This document shows, in pieces, positions 1-64,000 of a stretch of DNA of 64,000 bases. Under the pieces are notes generated by a model. That model did not search any database. It worked only from the letters and a program-made list of their open reading frames with translations, and was not told the origin of the DNA. The stretch covers positions 1 to 64,000 of the forward strand of contig JALDZX010000044.1 in NCBI GenBank assembly GCA_022813865.1, written 5' to 3'. Every line of letters starts with the position of its first letter. Position 1 is the stretch's first letter. The stretch comes from Xylographa opegraphella. Lineage: Eukaryota. The translations under genes were made by a program, and so were the position numbers.

Positions 1-387
1 CACCGAATATACGATTACTGTTGCCCCCGCCCTGATCCAAATACACGTGCCTTTTAATAAATACTATATAAAGGTTTACGATTATATAAAATATTTATTC
101 GAACGGGCGAAAGCCCTTTTTCGATACTCGAACCTTCATAATACTTCGTATCGAATTGGGTAGGTCGTTTATTAGTGCGATTAGGCGAGCCGTTAGCGGC
201 TTCACCTGCGACAGTTAAAGACGAATACGAACTGGGTGTCCCGATTGGGGAGCCGATTGTCAATCATTGAAGTTGAGTAGTTTAATAGATTTAATATTCA
301 CTCTTAATGCAGTCCTCATGATGTTTACGGGGAATGGAAGTGGAGAGCACATCTCGATATATGATTTATACACACGGTTGCAAAGTG

Positions 388-49213: not shown

Positions 49214-51603
49214 ATGCCAGGCTTCACAGGCATGTTTTCGTTCACGGTGGAAGCAACCAACCATTGGACTTTCACTTTGTATCTGCTCGCTGACATATGT
49301 CGCAGCGGCGGATACGATCCGAATCCTGATCGCCACCGATAGCCATGTTGGGTACAACGAGCGAGACGCCATCCGTGGCAACGACAGCTCCAACAGTTTC
49401 CACGAAGTCATGTGTCTGGCAAAGACTCGGGATGTGGATATGGTTCTGCTCGCGGGCGACCTCTTCCATGACAACAAACCGTCGAGAAAGTCGATGTTCG
49501 AGGTCATGCGTTCACTGCGCATGAACTGCTACGGGGAGAAGCCTTGCGAGCTTGAGATGCTCAGTGATCCAAGCGAATGCTTTCAAGGGTATATTCTATC
49601 GACTATCTTCTTCGGTATATGAAGCTTACTGGGGGCAAGAACTTTCAATCATGTCAACTACGAGGACCCCGATATCAATGTGGCTATTCCTGTCTTCTCG
49701 ATTCATGGAAACCACGATGATCCATCAGGGGTGCGTAACAGTCTCTTTCAGTCTTCCCAGCAAGCCACTTACAATTGCTAGGAAGGCCATCTAGCTGCTT
49801 TAGATTTGTTGCAGATATCAGGACTAGTGAATTACTATGGACGAACACCAGAGTCCGACAATATTCTCATCAAGCCTGTGCTGCTCCAGAAAGGGGGAAC
49901 CAAGCTCGCTCTTTATGGAATGAGCAATGTCAGAGACGAGAGACTGTTCCGTACATTTCGCGATGGCAAGGTCAAGTTTTTCCAGCCTGGTACACAAAAA
50001 GGGGACTGGTTTAATATAATGAGTGTACATCAAAATCAGTAGGCTCACCTAGACGTATGTCTGCCACGCAAATACGCTAACAAACCAAAGTCACGCCTAC
50101 ACGGAGACTGGCTACCTGCCTGAAAACTTCCTGCCGGAGTTTCTTGATCTCGTGGTTTGGGGTCACGAACACGAGTGTCTTATCAATCCTAGATATAATC
50201 CGGAAATGAACTTCCACGTCATGCAGCCTGGATCTTCTGTCGCAACGTCGCTTATGCCGGGCGAAGCTGTCCCCAAACATGTCGCAATCCTCAGTATTAC
50301 AGGTCGGGATTTCAAGGTGGAAACCATCAGATTGAAAACTGTGCGACCATTTGTCATGAAGGAGATTGTACTGTCCGAGGACAAGGAAGCCAAGAGATGG
50401 GCGAAAACGGAAAACCACAGGCCGAAGCTCACGGCGCATCTTGTAGGCATTGTGGATAAACTGATTGAGCAGGCGAAGGAAGAGTGGATGGAGACTCAAG
50501 AAGACACAGATCTGGACGAGGAGCTAGAGGTCCCTTTACCTCTAATCAGGCTCAGAGTTGAGTATTCCGCGCCAGACGGAGGCAACTTCGACTGCGAAAA
50601 TCCTCAAAGATTCTCCAACCGCTTCGTTGGCAAGGTCGCAAACGTCAACGATGTAGTACAGTTCTACCGGAAAAAATCCGGGGCCACTAGGATCGCGCAG
50701 GGTGGAGCCGACTTACCTGAGGAATCAATCATGGCACAGCTGTCCATTGACTCCGTCAAAGTGGAAAAGCTGGTACGGGAATTTCTCACGGCGCAGTCAC
50801 TCACGATCCTGCCGCAGAACTCCTTCGGGGACGCAGTGAGCCAATTCGTGGACAAGGATGACAAGCATGCGATGGAGATGTTTGTGAACGAAAGTCTCAC
50901 CAATCAAATCAAAAACCTCCTTGACATCGATCAGTACGACGACGATGACATCCTCACTGCGATGGATGCGCACAAGTCGAAGCTGGAAGAGCTCTTCGCG
51001 AAAGGACACCTGCGAAAGTCGAAAAAGGCGAAGCTGAAGCCGAGGCCGGACAATTGGGACTCTGACATTGATGGCGACTGGGGCGATCAGCCGGGAGCTC
51101 TCATCCATTCGGACATTGAAGACGCAGCCGATGATGTTGACGATAACCCATCGTTGGCTTCGACGGTGACCGCCGCCAAGGGTCGTGGCAGGGGTGCCCC
51201 CAAGAAGGCTGTTGCAACGACTAGAAAGGCAGCCGCAGCAGTACCGAAAACAACTCGAGGGAACAAGCAGATCGTGGAGGACGACAGCGACGAAGAAGAA
51301 AACGACGTTGTCATGGTCGATGCTGACGAGGACGACAACGAGATCTTCGTCAAGCCTGCCGCCACAGCACGTGGGCCCAGGAAGCCAGCGGCACCCAAGG
51401 CCGTGGCGGCACGCAAACGGGCGCCCGCTCGGGCAGCAGCGACCCAATCCAAACTGAACTTCTCCCAACCGGCGAGTCAAGTCAGCGGCAAGGGGAAAGG
51501 GAAAGCAGTCCAACCGATCCGGGATGATATCTCCGACGACGACGACGATGAAGCGTTTGCACCTCCGCCCCCTACCCAACGGTCGACGCGAGCTCAACGC
51601 TGA
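49214..51603 (+). CDS. MRE11: Double-strand break repair nuclease Mre11
   Basis: [76 protein letters not shown]. Confidence 0.97.
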
Positions 51604-56725: not shown

Positions 56726-58241
<1,516 letters not shown>

Positions 58242-59508
58242 CTTTCCAATACCCAGATCGGATCCAAGGACTCACAAGAAACTCACGAACAACGAACAAC
58301 ACGAAAAATCAACCTCCACCACCTCCATCACCAAACAAAACCAAAGATATCTTCCCGCTCAAACCACATCCATCGCACAGCGAAAGGGATTCTCACTCTT
58401 ATCATAGCAGTGTACAGTCGAAGGTCCACAAGGAAAAGATACCGTTCTACACTTGTGGGAACACAGCCGCTCGAAGCGAAACATATCTTAACCCTGGCTA
58501 CCTTACCTACCTATCTATGTAGGATAACGATACGCCAGATTCGACGAAATCGTATTGGCGATCCAGAACCCACCTACCTACGTTAGTCAAGTATGAATCC
58601 CGGCTTTAACCACCGCCTAAAAACAAATGCAAAAGCACATCCAGACCAAAAGCCCACAACACCCTATTAATAAAAACTACCCACGCGAGTGAACACTAAA
58701 CGTATAGTCTAGTACCTATTCCACGCCGGATTTCAAGAATACTGCCAAATTACCTACTTTACTTATCTACTTCCGTGAGGAAACATAAAAACTCCGAAAA
58801 CTAATCCGAACCACGTGATAATTTAAGGGTTTCCATACCCTAAGCGTAATCCCTCCAGACAGGTATACCGTATACCATATTTAAAACTATTCTATCCTCA
58901 TCCACTTAAAAGAACCCCTCCCCCTCCCCCCTCTTAAACTACAAAGCATCAACCCCCCCCCCCACAACCTCACACCTTGTATTCAATCACAATCACCCTG
59001 TAGCAAAAACCACACAGCACACCCCATCAACCAGCACAACCACATCGCCAAGTCCCCCACCCAAGAAAAATAAATCCTTATCATTGAAAACCACCCCTAC
59101 AAAGAACACCAAAGAGTGAAAGTGAGGGACCCAAAAAGAAACCAGTTCCTTAAGGTATATTATATATCCAACAAAAAGAGCGACGGAAACACTAGTATCC
59201 CCCCTCCAAAAAGGCAAGCAGACAGACCACAAAGGGGAGAAAAGGTACCAATATACGACCCCAGAACGTCATGCCACCCCCCCCCCCCCCCTCTCTTCCC
59301 CCCAGCAACATTCTACGTCTCCAACAAGAAACAACAACCATGCAGTGATTATATCACGAGTCCTCGCGCCCAAACGGAGAGATCCCCCCCCCATCCATCC
59401 ACCTCGTCGCTCCTTTACCCTTTCCCCCTCCCCCCCCTCCACCCCCCCCTCCACCCCCCCGGCCCTTCCCCACCGTCCCACCCACCCCCCCCAGACCCAG
59501 CACCCCCC

Positions 59509-62500
59509 TCACGCCAACGGAATCGCCTCGCTCAGTAACCTAAGCCCCATACGATCCGTCGCAACCGGCCACGTGTACGCCTTACGCGCCATGCCCAGCG
59601 GCGCGAGCTTCGCCTTCCGCGGCAGCGATTTCCGGCCCGGCTCCCGCGTCGCCTTGCCCGCCAGGTAGCAGGCCAGGAGCGATTCACCGTGGGCCGCGAG
59701 GTGATGCGCCGGCTCGTCCGCGACCGGCTGCTGCACGAGCGACACCAGCCGATCGAGCTGGTCGAGTGCGCGCCCGTACCAGCCGCCGTCGCGCTCGAGC
59801 CGGATCCTGACGGGCCCGGCTTCGGGCGTGGGTTTGAGGTCAGAGTGGAGGAGGGGCTCGAGGCCCGCTTTCGAGGCCGGGCACGGCGAGGAGGTGGGTG
59901 TCGGGGGCCCGAATTCGTGGTCCGAGGCATAGGATGGCGAGAAGGTGAGTTTCGGAGTCGGGCATGTGGTCCTTTCGGTAGAGGGCTGGAGAGGAGGCGG
60001 CGAGTCGTTTAGTTCGAGGATGGATGATATACTGGGGCGGATAGGCGCTTTGCTTGGTCCACCGGTGATGAGCGGGATCGTGCCAAGTTTGTAGCCTCTG
60101 GACTTTCGCGGCATCTTGGTCTTTTCTTTGACCTCGCAGATCTGTATCGTGTTGGTGGAGCTGGCGACGCTGTTCACGGGAATGGGCTGCGCGACGCCGA
60201 AGCCCGGATGGAGTCTGACATCGGTGGCTAGCAGCGTCTCCTTGATATCGGCAAAGACCACATGGATGGGGGTGAAGAGAAGCAAATCTTCGTGCAAACC
60301 CCATAACTGGCCCACCAGCTTGTCGTTGTCTTCTCGGTATATCCACGCGCCTGAATCACCAGGCAGCCATTCCTCCTGCGGACGATCTCGTTGCACGATG
60401 ATGGACCACTCTTCCGTGACAACTCCGTCCATGCAAACGGTGCTTAGCAGAGGGTGAATGACTCCTTGTTGCCGGCCGCTTCGCTGGCCTACAAAGTATA
60501 CGCGCTTATTTGGCTCAGGATCGCAGGTCGCTTGGCAAAGTGGCCCGTCACCCCTTGGTTGATCTGAAGTAAGAGCCATTGAGCCATTCTCGTAACGATA
60601 GCGGTGTCGGTTCTCGCCTTGACGCTGGTTAACACTGAACAAGGCCCAGTCCATTCGATGATTGACTCGTTTGATGGGTCCTGACGACGAGGAGTTTAGT
60701 ACAGTGGCGCTCCTGTACGTTCTTTGAAAGCGATGGGCCAGCTTTCCCAATTCGAATGCGTCCTCACTTTTTACTAATTCGCCCCGAAGTTCTAGTAATG
60801 ACTCCTCCGTACGCTCTAAGACCATCATTGACTCCGGTAAATTGCTCCTGGAAAGCTCAGGCAGTCCGTGACAGAGACTCAAAATATGAGCTCTCACGCC
60901 TTGGATGCTTTGCTCCAACTGTTCCGACATATCCTCAACATCGAACAAAGATGGAGAAGTAAGCACGAGTTGATCTGCCAGTGGACCGGAGCAATTTTCC
61001 TTCGACTTGTCGATGAAATGGTCCACTGCAAGCAGATACGATTGCCCGTCGACGGAAATATAACCACCCAAAGTCGCCGAGACAGATCGGGTGCATTGCA
61101 ATCCAATCGATGCTCCTGATCCTGGATACTCCCAGTATCTCTTGTGATATGGGAACTCCGGTACATCGTCGTCACTCTCACTTGCGCTATAGGCGTCCTC
61201 TTCTTCGGCTTCTTGTTGCTTCTGACCACGTAAGGGCGGTCGATCACGGCTAGTCGCCAGTAGTCGCACACTCCCTGTCGAAAACCGCAGGTCAATATGA
61301 ATCAAACCACTTTTATCACACAAATCACATATGGCCTTGCGAATCTCTTTCTTCACATGAGACGACTGCAAGCGAGGGCTCTGGATCCGGATATACGGGT
61401 GGGCTGAAAGTTCCGATAAACCAAGCCGCACCAAGTTGACCGAGTAACTCCGTCCAATGCGAGGACCGAGGATATTCGGCAAATTGGGGGAGATGACGTT
61501 GTTCCACGCATGAATCAAGACTTTATCCTCCGCTCTTACTGCAAACGTGTGAAACTGCTTCCCAGCAGTCCGGCCATTGTATACCCGCTTGGTCGATTCC
61601 GAACGCATCTCATCTGCAAAAGCATTTGACCATCTGGTCGAAGAGCGCTTTACGACCTGCAGTCCAGCTCTGCGAAGTAGCGTTTCCAAAATTCCCTGTA
61701 ATTTCAGTCTCGCTTGGTGAGCTGCCCGGGCAGGGCCACGCAGTTGAATGACTCCTTTGGTCGTATTGTAGGTGATGAACGTGATTCCTGCTGTTCGTAA
61801 TGCCGTCACCGCGGTTTGCAAGAAATTCTCCAATTTTTTCAACCCTAATAAGAACTTAGCTAGCTAGCACAAGGTTGATGGGAACAGTCTTACAGTCAGT
61901 TGGCTGAAGGGCAAGGGCAACGAAATCGGCTGGATGAACGTTTGATATCTCTTCCATACTCGAATGGTCATCAAATCTCCAAAGCGGAGCGTCCAGAAGC
62001 GGATCAGTATAACGCATTGTCCCAAACGGCCAAGAAGTGGCGGGAGGGATAAATCCAGTCGTTGGATCATCATGAGAACCATATATGGACGAAAACGTAG
62101 TGCATTCAAAATTTTCAAAATCATATTTATTTTGATATGCGACCGGGTTCGAAACTTGAGCACTGTTCGCCAAGGATAAAGATCGTATACTAGTATCACC
62201 TGCAGCGACAATGAGCGAGTTATTTAGGTCATTGTCGTCACGATTAGGCGTATTTGCACTAGAGCTCGTTGTAGAATCTCGGTATCGACCTCTTTTCAGG
62301 TGAGGCTGGGGTTCGTGCCGCAGTTCTTGTGTAGTGATGGATAGTGGTCTTTTCCTCCGAGGGGCTACCACACCCCTGGTTTTCCGACAATCATGCTGGA
62401 AAGGCTGACCCAGGTTCAAGGAGTTCAGGCCGCCGTGAGCTGATAGCAAAAGTTAGTATAACAGTGACACCAAAGGTACTGACAGGTACAAACACTCATT

Positions 62501-63281
62501 GTTTGTGGAGGAGAGTTCGATGATACGCGGGCCGTCGCTACAACCATTATCGTAAGCTAGTCCATGATCCCGGACCAGGTGTTCGTTGAGACAGAATGTC
62601 GAGCTAAATAGCAGTGTCCCGCCTACATGACAGCATTTCTCCGGGCAAGGATAACCTGGATTGTACAACTCGAGGGAGTGCTGCCCACGGAGATGTTGCG
62701 ATATGTGATCCTTTCGCCCAGACTTGTGCGATTTCTCTTCCAATTTGCAACATCCACAATACCATGATCCTTTTTCTGGAGAATGATGGCAATTTTGATG
62801 TCTCTCTAAATCGTACTTGCGCTTGTAGCTCCTGGTATTTGCACAGCTTGGATGGTCGCAATAGAAAAGTGGCGCAAGCTTTGTGGTATCGGGTTTCTTG
62901 CCCGAAGAGTTCGCCGATTGAACGTTCGAAACGGGAGACAATTGCGGAGGCTCGTTATCTGCAGTATGCTTCTACGACGTTAGCAACAGCTTCACGACGA
63001 TAAGCAGGAAATCCTACCTCTTCGAGACTCCAATGACTGCTTGATCGAGAAGATAGCAAGGATCCCTCGGAACAAACTGGCGGCCACGCCGTATCACTGT
63101 CTGGATTTTTGGACACGAGGGTGATACCGAAAGGTTCATCCCGAGGAAGCGAATCAGTATAGCTACGGTGATCATCGGTGAACCAGAGCGTTCTGTGGTT
63201 TGGAAAAGTCTTCTCATACTCCGCTATTCTCCAATCTAGAGGGACGTTGAAGGCGGTACTGGATTCAGCAAAGCTACCCAT
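59509..63281 (-). CDS. Putative C2H2 zinc-finger + trypsin-like serine protease fusion protein (~1207 aa, 4 exons)
   Basis: Introns 63017-62972, 62493-62440 and 61893-61845 are phase-compatible and give a 3624-nt spliced CDS. Exon 2 carries C2H2-like fingers; exon 4 carries SATLGG, AVDH, DWAL and PGDSGAW motifs. Confidence 0.72.
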
Positions 63282-64000
63282 GTCTGTTCTCTGTGGTAGA
63301 AGGTTGTGCGTTCTTCCGTGTGGTGGTTCTCAAATTGCTGAAATCAATGGTTACTGGTCCGAAAGAGCCGTACTGTAAGGAAACAAAATAGAAGAATAGA
63401 ACGGCCTTGGATGCTCTCTTGGATGATCTGCTATCTCAATCCAATTCCCGTGTTCGAATTGAGATCTTCTGTTAAAACAGCGCTGGGTCTTTCTTGGATA
63501 ACAGGAAAAAGGACGTGGAACGCTTTTGTACAACGGGACAGCTACCAGGCAGCAACAAGGCTCGAGCCCTTTCAAAAGTCTCTAATGAAACGTAATGCCT
63601 ATGAATTGAACAGATAGAACATTACAACAGAGCCCAGACAACAAGAGATGAAAACCCCCGATCACACAGCTGACCATCGTAAAAGGGCGTAAAGAGCCCG
63701 TAACATAGCCCAGCATGGCTCGGCATCCACACCTACACAGCAGTAGCACTGCGGCTACGCAGGTCATCAGGGATACGCCCATAGTCAACAAATCTCATCC
63801 AATCACAAACGCAACCATCACACCAAAATCGCTCATCTCAGCCTTCGCGCCTCCAGATCACGACCTACGCTCATTGGGGGCCAATTCTCGGCAGCTTGCC
63901 CTCCTCGCCCTAATTGCCTTTTTTGCCCTTTCCTCACTTTGGCGCCGGTGATCCTAACTAAGGTCTTCCCCCCACCCAAAACGCCATCTCGCCGAAACTG

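Follow-up and report, generated by a model that had tools for sequence, protein, structure and literature searches.

Three described systems provide the closest parallels to the gene analyzed here, and they are summarized as presented in the papers cited here and below. The yeast protease Ssy5 processes itself and activates the zinc-finger transcription factors Stp1 and Stp2 by endoproteolysis (PMC4985261, PMC5567314). It is controlled by a 381-residue prodomain (PMC4985261, PMC4557415), and a survey of fungal serine proteases describes the Ssy5 peptidases as single-domain proteins (PMC5567314). SltB of Aspergillus nidulans, a Pezizomycotina-specific protein, is a long chain that ends in an Ssy5-like serine protease domain; it undergoes autoproteolysis between its two domains and cuts the three-finger C2H2 protein SltA to an active 32-kDa form (PMC4985261, PMC4557415). 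The third protein, NAL1 of rice, is intracellular and, within a hexameric cage, hydrolyses FZP, a transcription factor (PMC12012508). Here we analyze a locus of the lichen-forming ascomycete Xylographa opegraphella in which a protease of this kind and an array of zinc fingers are very likely encoded by one gene. The locus occupies positions 59,509 to 63,281, on the minus strand, of a window of 64,000 nucleotides (nt) that was analyzed as a whole (assembly GCA_022813865.1, contig JALDZX010000044.1, positions 1 to 64,000). An earlier note, made from the letters of this window, had proposed the fusion.

Comparison of the predicted protein with the described systems revealed both shared and distinct features. 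Rice NAL1 (PDB 8pmi, 7y77, 8hau and others) is the closest solved structure, and both of its domains are covered; however, identity is only 13-14%, NAL1 has no zinc fingers, and the fungal protein has a long two-helix insert between the catalytic His and Asp. Like yeast Ssy5 (MEROPS S64, PF08192), the protein is a predicted fungal intracellular chymotrypsin-fold protease with a large non-catalytic N-terminal part. In contrast to Ssy5, which cuts a separate substrate within the SPS sensor, it carries the fingers in the same chain, and the match of its relatives to the Ssy5 profile is confined to the C-terminal barrel with the Ser, at the last ~100 positions of PF08192. SltB, compared by its published description only, differs by an N-terminal pseudokinase and by having SltA as a separate gene product; no kinase family matched any of the four exon translations (Pfam, E <= 1). 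The bacterial S1E proteases, such as alpha-lytic protease and Streptomyces griseus protease B, superimpose on the core with a root-mean-square deviation (rmsd) of 2.5-2.7 A over 176-184 residues (Z ~18), whereas they are secreted, small and devoid of accessory domains, with identity of 13-19%. S1E proteases are made with an N-terminal pro-region, which is removed where the core begins (see PDB 1boq).

Gene structure at the Xylographa locus

Four stop-to-stop open reading frames (ORFs) follow each other head to tail on the minus strand (62955-63329, 62453-62971, 61856-62452, and 59509-61863). The earlier note had spliced them through introns of 46, 54 and 49 nt into a protein of 1207 residues, and the arithmetic holds: the exon join 63281-63018 + 62971-62494 + 62439-61894 + 61844-59509 gives 3624 nt, that is, 1207 codons and a stop. 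The predicted features of the N-terminal half and the exon boundaries are as follows, where NLS stands for nuclear localization signal and P0001 for the deposited GenBank protein:

63018..63281, minus strand: exon 1, residues 1-88, Ser-rich, beginning at the first ATG of its ORF
62972..63017, minus strand: intron 1, 46 nt, GTAGGA..GCTAAC..TAG
62494..62971, minus strand: exon 2, residues 89-248 with the last codon split, zinc-finger array
62564..62860, minus strand: three C2H2-type fingers, residues 126-224
62440..62493, minus strand: intron 2, 54 nt, in frame, GTTTGT..TACTAAC..CAG
61894..62439, minus strand: exon 3, residues 248-430, mostly unconserved linker, included in P0001
62285..62362, minus strand: NLS-like basic patches PRRKRP and HLKRGR, residues 274-299
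61913..61948, minus strand: conserved motif I-S-N-V-H-P-A-D-F-V-A-L at the linker end, residues 412-423, similar in P0039, P0041 and P0042
61845..61893, minus strand: intron 3, 49 nt, GTAAGA..GCTAAG..TAG
59509..61844, minus strand: exon 4, residues 430-1207 and the stop

To rank the introns, every frame-keeping GT..AG pair of 40-130 nt was enumerated and given a crude score. Intron 2, at 54 nt, took first rank among 19 candidates. Exons 2 and 3 share one frame, and the sole stop between them, TAA at 62455-62453, lies inside the perfect TACTAAC branch site of this intron. The donor of intron 1 also serves alternatives of 49 and 67 nt (17 candidates). Intron 3 of 49 nt scored under an alternative of 100 nt (13 candidates); the longer form is disfavoured because it would delete the conserved motif at the linker end and because P0001 reads the 49-nt junction (..QPTDWLKKL..).

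Judged by sequence comparison, the finger exons and the protease exon very probably constitute one four-exon gene, a single gene being much likelier than separate ones. The evidence is of three kinds: (i) fused relatives among database proteins, (ii) the layout of homologous loci in metagenomes, and (iii) conserved landmarks that bind the finger region to the protease gene.

A search of 1.84 billion representative proteins returned 315 relatives at E <= 0.001, including 147 at E <= 1e-30. Among the best 150 of these 315, 18 proteins have 372-527 residues before the match, and all 18 contain C2H2 patterns there, at least two in 17 of them, at comparable positions and with the second finger CGCC..KD..HL in common. 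The finger-bearing relatives, several of which are named 'C2H2-type domain-containing protein', belong to Glutinoglossum, Zopfia, Lojkania, Lentithecium, Melanomma and Amniculicola. When exon 2 alone was compared with 218 fetched proteins, it matched 10 protease-bearing proteins in their N-terminal parts (E 2.9e-14 to 4.4e-4), as well as P0006, a gene model from Xylographa soralifera. Two landmarks beyond the fingers are conserved across the 18 finger-bearing relatives, the KR(G/R)R patch and an I..V...DF..L motif at residues 412-423; both sit in exon 3, which P0001 already assigns to the protease gene.

Scanning of metagenome contigs with a 16-sequence alignment yielded 38 loci, nine of which combine E <= 1e-48 with 800 nt or more of sequence upstream. 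In all nine, the DNA directly upstream on the same strand encodes fingers or linker; fingers were found in eight, and L006 shows the linker only because its contig ends. The nine count as seven independent loci because L010-L012 are near-copies. No upstream finger or linker match was obtained for the other 29 loci, of which 25 are distant (E 4e-25 to 4e-4) and four (L001-L003 and L007) have no upstream room. The ORFs for fingers, linker and protease are as tightly packed in L010, L005 and L004 as in X. opegraphella: they touch, overlap or are separated by no more than ~35 nt. The gap between the finger and protease ORFs is ~50 nt in L015 and ~310 nt in L009. At the distances seen in L010, L005, L004 and L015, a promoter for a separate gene would not fit between the ORFs. 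Behind the finger ORF, three of the five loci examined, L010, L005 and L004, have a canonical intron that keeps the frame (GTGAGT, 53 nt; GTAAGT, 59 nt; GTTAGT, 52 nt); each of these introns has a branch site and shares the position of intron 2. Two points of the earlier note are borne out here: the donor of intron 2 had rightly been named as the weakest link, an intron being present at the same position in three of five homologous loci, and the suggested search for homologues with the same architecture found it recurring in other fungi, in 18 proteins and seven independent loci.

Deposited models and spread of the fused family

The GenBank protein P0001, a hypothetical protein of X. opegraphella (965 residues), is 100% identical over the queried part of the last exon. 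It begins MSVCT..SHGG at the ATG at 62498, within the finger exon in another frame, and proceeds through a GTCAGT donor at 62483 to the unchanged acceptor of intron 2; it lacks exons 1 and 2 because it starts there. The X. soralifera model P0006 (1098 residues) begins with a homologue of exon 1, has an identical intron-1 junction (..SLEEK..) and continues into the protease. Conservation of exon 1 is confined to Xylographa, with P0006 as the sole phmmer match among the 218 proteins (residues 1-94, E 1.9e-22). From the Cys pair of the first finger, P0006 jumps to the linker and so lacks most of the finger region, which points to decay of the fingers in X. soralifera or to an error in the model. 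Fingers are likewise absent from the models of four close Xylographa relatives (P0002-P0005). Both P0001 and P0006 are predictions, and the X. opegraphella locus is probably mis-annotated in GenBank, with a truncated model.

Several observations speak against this reading of the locus. The GTTTGT donor of intron 2 departs from the consensus at position +3, and all three exon junctions of the 1207-residue model are predicted from sequence. The deposited model P0001 leaves the fingers out, and the fused proteins of other fungi are gene predictions themselves. Two of the five metagenome loci, L009 and L015, have no frame-keeping GT..AG intron of 40-130 nt after the finger ORF. The X. opegraphella protein matches no Pfam protease or zinc-finger model, PF08192 included, at E <= 1. 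Finally, of 115 database relatives scored for fingers in a FastTree phylogeny of 120 protease domains, 97 have none as called, and some of these may genuinely be without them.

The last count should be read together with the lengths of the proteins. In 84 of the 97 finger-less relatives, at most 240 residues precede the protease core, as calls of the last exon would give, and many of the short members are probably truncated in the way P0001 is. The finger-bearing rows are scattered in the tree (15 changes compared with 17.0 for shuffled labels; 38 of 500 shuffles gave as low a number), and for some of them the sister row is finger-less and very close, as with P0176 and P0178 (0.16 each). The finger labels are unreliable because those 84 rows resemble last-exon calls, and the tree therefore cannot date the fusion. 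We take the number of fused members counted here as a minimum.

The fused family, present in the databases as uncharacterised entries, spans at least three classes of Pezizomycotina and was found in lichen-forming Lecanoromycetes, Pleosporales and Geoglossomycetes. Among the matches listed in the literature search, whose scope excluded subscription journals and supplements, there was no account of a zinc-finger fusion of an S64/NAL1-type protease, and none of the matches listed linked Ssy5 with NAL1.

A sister clade of proteins of ~1200 residues (P0112-P0120) comes from Xylariales and one species of Chaetothyriales. These proteins have an N-terminal HeLo or DUF7580 domain followed by the alpha/beta plus protease unit. 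HeLo was found in P0113 and seven others in precomputed Pfam annotation, and confirmed in P0113; DUF7580 in P0112 scored 26.7 bits against a cut-off of 27 bits. The HeLo set forms a separate clade, the branch to this outgroup having a support of 100. The replacement of the fingers by HeLo or DUF7580 suggests that the protease unit may be a cassette that acts on whatever partner lies N-terminal to it.

In a further relative, P0079 (928 residues), a HET domain (residues 564-734) comes after the family protease. The two may be genuinely fused, or the gene caller may have merged adjacent genes.

Domain composition and genomic surroundings

The part of the protein encoded by exon 4 was modelled with AlphaFold2, and the predicted local distance difference test score (pLDDT) is used below as its measure of confidence; model numbering is that of exon 4. 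The following features were assigned:

61663..61842, minus strand: small helix-strand-strand-helix domain, residues 431-490, AlphaFold2 pLDDT 71-82
61243..61551, minus strand: alpha/beta domain, residues 528-630, pLDDT 95-98, aligned to the NAL1 region N-terminal to its protease
61165..61227, minus strand: acidic disordered linker, residues 636-656, pLDDT <50 over model 206-226
60202..61131, minus strand: chymotrypsin-fold serine protease domain, residues 668-977
61018..61020, minus strand: catalytic His705, context LLAVDHF
60754..60948, minus strand: helical insert between His and Asp, model helices 299-324 and 337-356 (both long) and 360-363
60649..60651, minus strand: catalytic Asp828, context HRMDWAL
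60352..60354, minus strand: catalytic Ser927, context PGDSGAW
59512..60201, minus strand: C-terminal tail, Pro/Ser-rich and poorly conserved, residues 978-1207
59566..59583, minus strand: motif K-A-Y-T-W-P, 18 residues from the C-terminus, family pattern [KR]-x-x-[ST]-[FWY]-P

The model of exon-4 residues 1-560 has a mean pLDDT of 85.8 and a predicted template modelling score (pTM) of 0.80, with pLDDT mostly at least 90 over the protease core (240-545) and disorder at 62-92 and 206-226. In Foldseek, rice NAL1 was the best match (E 3.5e-9), followed by the S. griseus, S. fradiae, alpha-lytic and Lysobacter proteases (E 5e-7 to 2e-5). Alignment with VIA-align gave Z 22.0 and rmsd 4.8 A over 306 residues against NAL1 (model 106-552, chain 90-452), and Z 18.8 and rmsd 2.5 A over 182 of 191 residues against the S. 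fradiae protease 2sfa (model 240-545); about 25 further S1E entries align at Z 16-18. The profile of the protease family matched NAL1 in PDB at E 0.015 with the GDSG motifs of both aligned, and a search with the single protein gave no PDB match at E <= 1.

All three catalytic residues, in the order His, Asp, Ser, are invariant in 116 aligned sequences, and their contexts seem to resemble the classical motifs of the protease triad. The invariant columns of this alignment are G247, H275, D398, N411, G452, G495, S497 and G498 (exon-4 numbering), and D496 is conserved in at least 90% of the sequences.

The Peptidase_S64 profile of Pfam (PF08192, Ssy5) was matched at E <= 0.01 by 24 of 60 relatives in one scan and 4 of 16 in another, and the matches cover only profile positions ~580-690 of 692. 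Six of the 76 relatives (P0064, P0067, P0073, P0125, P0141 and the finger-bearing P0176) passed its gathering score of 23.6 bits. Nal1_C (PF25819) was not matched by the X. opegraphella protein, and relative P0103 reached 18.8 bits, under the cut-off of 26.1. Judged by the model, the domain is thus a chymotrypsin-fold protease with a conserved triad, structurally nearest to NAL1 and by sequence remotely tied to S64.

These results agree with what the earlier note had read from exon 4. The His, Asp and Ser codons are where it had placed them; the helical insert appears in the model as two long helices; the trypsin fold that it had put up for checking by AlphaFold and Foldseek was recovered as a confident model with NAL1 and S1E matches; and kinship to Ssy5 and NAL1 follows from the Pfam matches in relatives and from the structure comparison. 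NAL1 requires a trimer-of-dimers cage for activity; a prediction of a two-copy complex of exon-4 residues 95-555, run with neither a supplied alignment nor controls, had a score of 0.00 and a mark of 0.32, values that speak in neither direction on assembly.

The segments around the protease core bear on its possible regulation. The NAL1 region to which the alpha/beta domain aligns is called an ATP-binding domain in the NAL1 paper (PMC12012508). The acidic linker directly precedes the point at which the bacterial S1E proteases begin (model ~238-240), and residues 641-660 are 50% Asp and Glu. By likeness to Ssy5 and alpha-lytic protease, we infer that residues 636-656 are a candidate region for self-cleavage. 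The small domain at residues 431-490 produced weak and inconsistent hints: LSDAT_prok at E 0.0013, KH_SLS1_1 in P0006, and vigilin KH at E 0.87. In the tail, the pattern [KR]xx[ST][FWY]P was found after GDSG in 55 of 112 family proteins compared with 42 of 2220 shuffled tails. The K-A-Y-T-W-P sequence presumably resembles both a basophilic-kinase site and a mode-1 14-3-3 motif.

In exon 2, the three finger strings reported earlier were found on translation. The spacing C-x(1-5)-C-x(8-22)-H-x(3-6)-H occurs three times in tandem, starting at residues 126, 160 and 197, with the predicted ligands C126/C131/H146/H151, C160/C163/H181/H186 and C197/C201-202/H219/H224. In exon-2 numbering, to which 88 is added to obtain the numbering of the spliced protein, C38, R57, H58, C72, G73, C75, H93 and H98 are invariant in 21 aligned sequences, and six of these are zinc ligands; C43, H63, C109, H131 and H136 are conserved in at least 90%. 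The conservation of the ligands also holds in a six-sequence alignment.

AlphaFold2 of exon 2 with the 21-sequence alignment gave pLDDT of 86-96 over most ten-residue blocks of residues 31-140 (75 for block 61-70), and three times short strands followed by a helix with two His. All Foldseek matches listed for this model in PDB were tandem C2H2 proteins (KLF5, TFIIIA, WT1, CTCF etc.), the best at E 0.01 and none reaching 0.001; such values are expected for flexibly linked fingers but are formally weak. Exon 2 had no Pfam match at E <= 1, the zf-C2H2 families included, and among 16 relatives scanned, sub-threshold finger matches were obtained for P0042 and P0082 (zf-H2C2_2) and for P0090 (zf-C2H2). 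The ESM Atlas returned fungal C2H2 clusters at 0.93, which serve as a lead only.

When exon 2 was compared with longer proteins, none of 142 candidates matched at E <= 0.001, proteins of 87-278 residues being left unsearched. A six-sequence finger profile had one match, P0219 (865 residues, E 5.1e-4), which has no protease similarity, and this match is too weak to tell in either direction about stand-alone finger modules.

Three loci of the Pleosporales type (L005:2903-3547, L009:5762-6418, L015:1539-2231) have a fourth C2H2 finger between the positions of Xylographa fingers 1 and 2.

Both basic patches named in the earlier note are present, and at least 80% of the 18 finger-bearing relatives share K296 and R297. 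Its claim that the protein has no signal peptide is upheld by the Kyte-Doolittle profile of the 1207-residue chain, where the highest 19-residue mean is 1.41 and lies within the protease barrel. No signal peptide or membrane segment is predicted because the N-terminus is hydrophilic and the hydropathy maximum is only 1.41. N-myristoylation of the MGSFAES start was considered and provisionally rejected, Glu at position 5 after the Gly being at odds with the PROSITE pattern.

Taken together, the predicted chain consists, with high confidence, of three C2H2 fingers, a conserved NLS-like basic patch, a disordered linker of ~110 residues, a small alpha/beta domain, a NAL1-like protease unit of two domains (alpha/beta and chymotrypsin-fold) and a disordered tail that ends in the conserved motif K-x-x-T-[FW]-P.

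Three ordinary genes were noted in the neighbourhood:

50053-51603, plus strand: Mre11
from ~52864, plus strand: aldehyde dehydrogenase
~57222-58271, minus strand: protein kinase, ~1.2 kb downstream of the stop

The protein kinase was rejected as a part of the system, having no counterpart in the 38 related loci. Just past the stop, at 59270-59540, there is a GC-rich, strongly strand-skewed tract of low complexity with poly-Gly and poly-Pro ORFs on two strands. The GC skew of 58001-60000 is -0.264.

Possible modes of action

By analogy with Ssy5-Stp1/2, SltB-SltA and NAL1-FZP, we give an even chance to the possibility that this predicted cytosolic or nuclear protein acts as a latent transcription factor, releasing its DNA-binding half through self-cleavage; the earlier note had likewise suggested a self-processing or proteolytically gated regulator. 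The protease would cut the chain to which it belongs, whether in cis or from one subunit to another, and the cut would fall in the post-NLS linker or at the acidic junction that precedes the protease core. The finger and NLS module would then be freed from the bulky protease and the tail and would act in the nucleus, and the tail motif K-A-Y-T-W-P may be the place where a signal acts. Such a protein would be the Ssy5-Stp1/2 and SltB-SltA systems collapsed into a single polypeptide. The layout is consistent with release, the conserved NLS-like KR pair being beside the fingers, the disordered acidic segment at the very point where S1E proteases and Ssy5 lose their pro-regions, and the tail motif at the far end of the chain. 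A more specific version is proposed tentatively and is the less probable of the two: a one-component switch, in effect a factor serving as its own Ssy5, in which self-cleavage would be licensed by a signal received at the tail motif or at the nucleotide-binding domain of NAL1 type and would free the DNA-binding half for the nucleus, with the tail motif providing phospho-regulated retention.

Three points weigh against release by self-cleavage, and two of them favour the main rival mode of action, in which the protein would be a DNA-tethered protease. In this alternative the whole chain, possibly oligomeric, would be brought by its fingers to promoters or to a partner and would cleave other regulators in trans. 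First, no conserved cleavage site was seen in linker residues 300-411 of the 18 finger-bearing relatives. Second, NAL1, the closest structure and one that is matched over both domains (Z 22.0), acts on other proteins and degrades a transcription factor, and self-cleavage is not mentioned in the accessible part of the paper on it (PMC12012508). Third, a cut at the junction of pro-region and protease alone would leave the fingers on ~350 residues of non-finger protein. The NLS-like patch, moreover, would take the whole protein into the nucleus. Against tethering, both fungal precedents, Ssy5 and SltB, process themselves (PMC4985261), the site at which pro-regions are cut off is occupied here by a disordered acidic segment, and the same unit follows HeLo in the sister clade, where DNA targeting cannot be the logic. 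On this evidence, the tethered protease appears rather unlikely, and somewhat more so than the switch.

Two separate genes, namely a finger-only protein of ~263 residues ending at the intron-2 TAA and a protease, or two isoforms arising by intron retention, are improbable. Such an arrangement would fit the start of P0001 at ATG 62498 with its GTCAGT donor, the weak GTTTGT donor of intron 2 and the lack of fingers in the Xylographa models P0002-P0005; since intron 2 is in frame and contains a single stop, its retention would simply truncate the protein. However, there is no intergenic space between the finger exon and the start of P0001, because the ATG of P0001 sits 3 nt upstream of the intron-2 donor, in the open frame of the finger exon. 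Exon 3 holds the NLS-like motif found behind the fingers of every fused relative, the fused layout recurs in the 18 database proteins and seven independent loci, L010, L005 and L004 have introns at the same position, and exons 1 and 2 run on into the protease in the X. soralifera model.

A role as a cell-death or immune effector, the latter an option in the earlier note, with the protease unit as the trigger or sensor of a fungal defence protein, is suggested indirectly by distant relatives with HeLo or DUF7580 before the unit and by P0079 with HET behind it, and it is the least probable reading, very improbable here, given that what this protein carries is an array of zinc fingers with an NLS-like patch and no death domain, that the HeLo set is a separate clade (support 100), and that no NACHT/NB-ARC or repeat domain was found by Pfam in the four exon translations.

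In yeast amino-acid sensing, in the cation and alkaline stress response of Aspergillus, and in leaf and panicle development of rice, proteases of this type cut transcription factors that are separate proteins, whereas the conserved family described here joins protease and factor in one chain. A structural link between the fungal S64 proteases and plant NAL1 also emerges from the comparison. If the one-component switch is true, the fusion would be a 'Rosetta stone' indicating that proteases of the Ssy5/SltB/NAL1 type and zinc-finger factors were ancestral partners, and the HeLo sister clade would release a pore-forming death domain by the same cassette. The family provides a compact and genetically simple system for studying how such proteases stay latent, what licenses them, and how they recognize their substrates.

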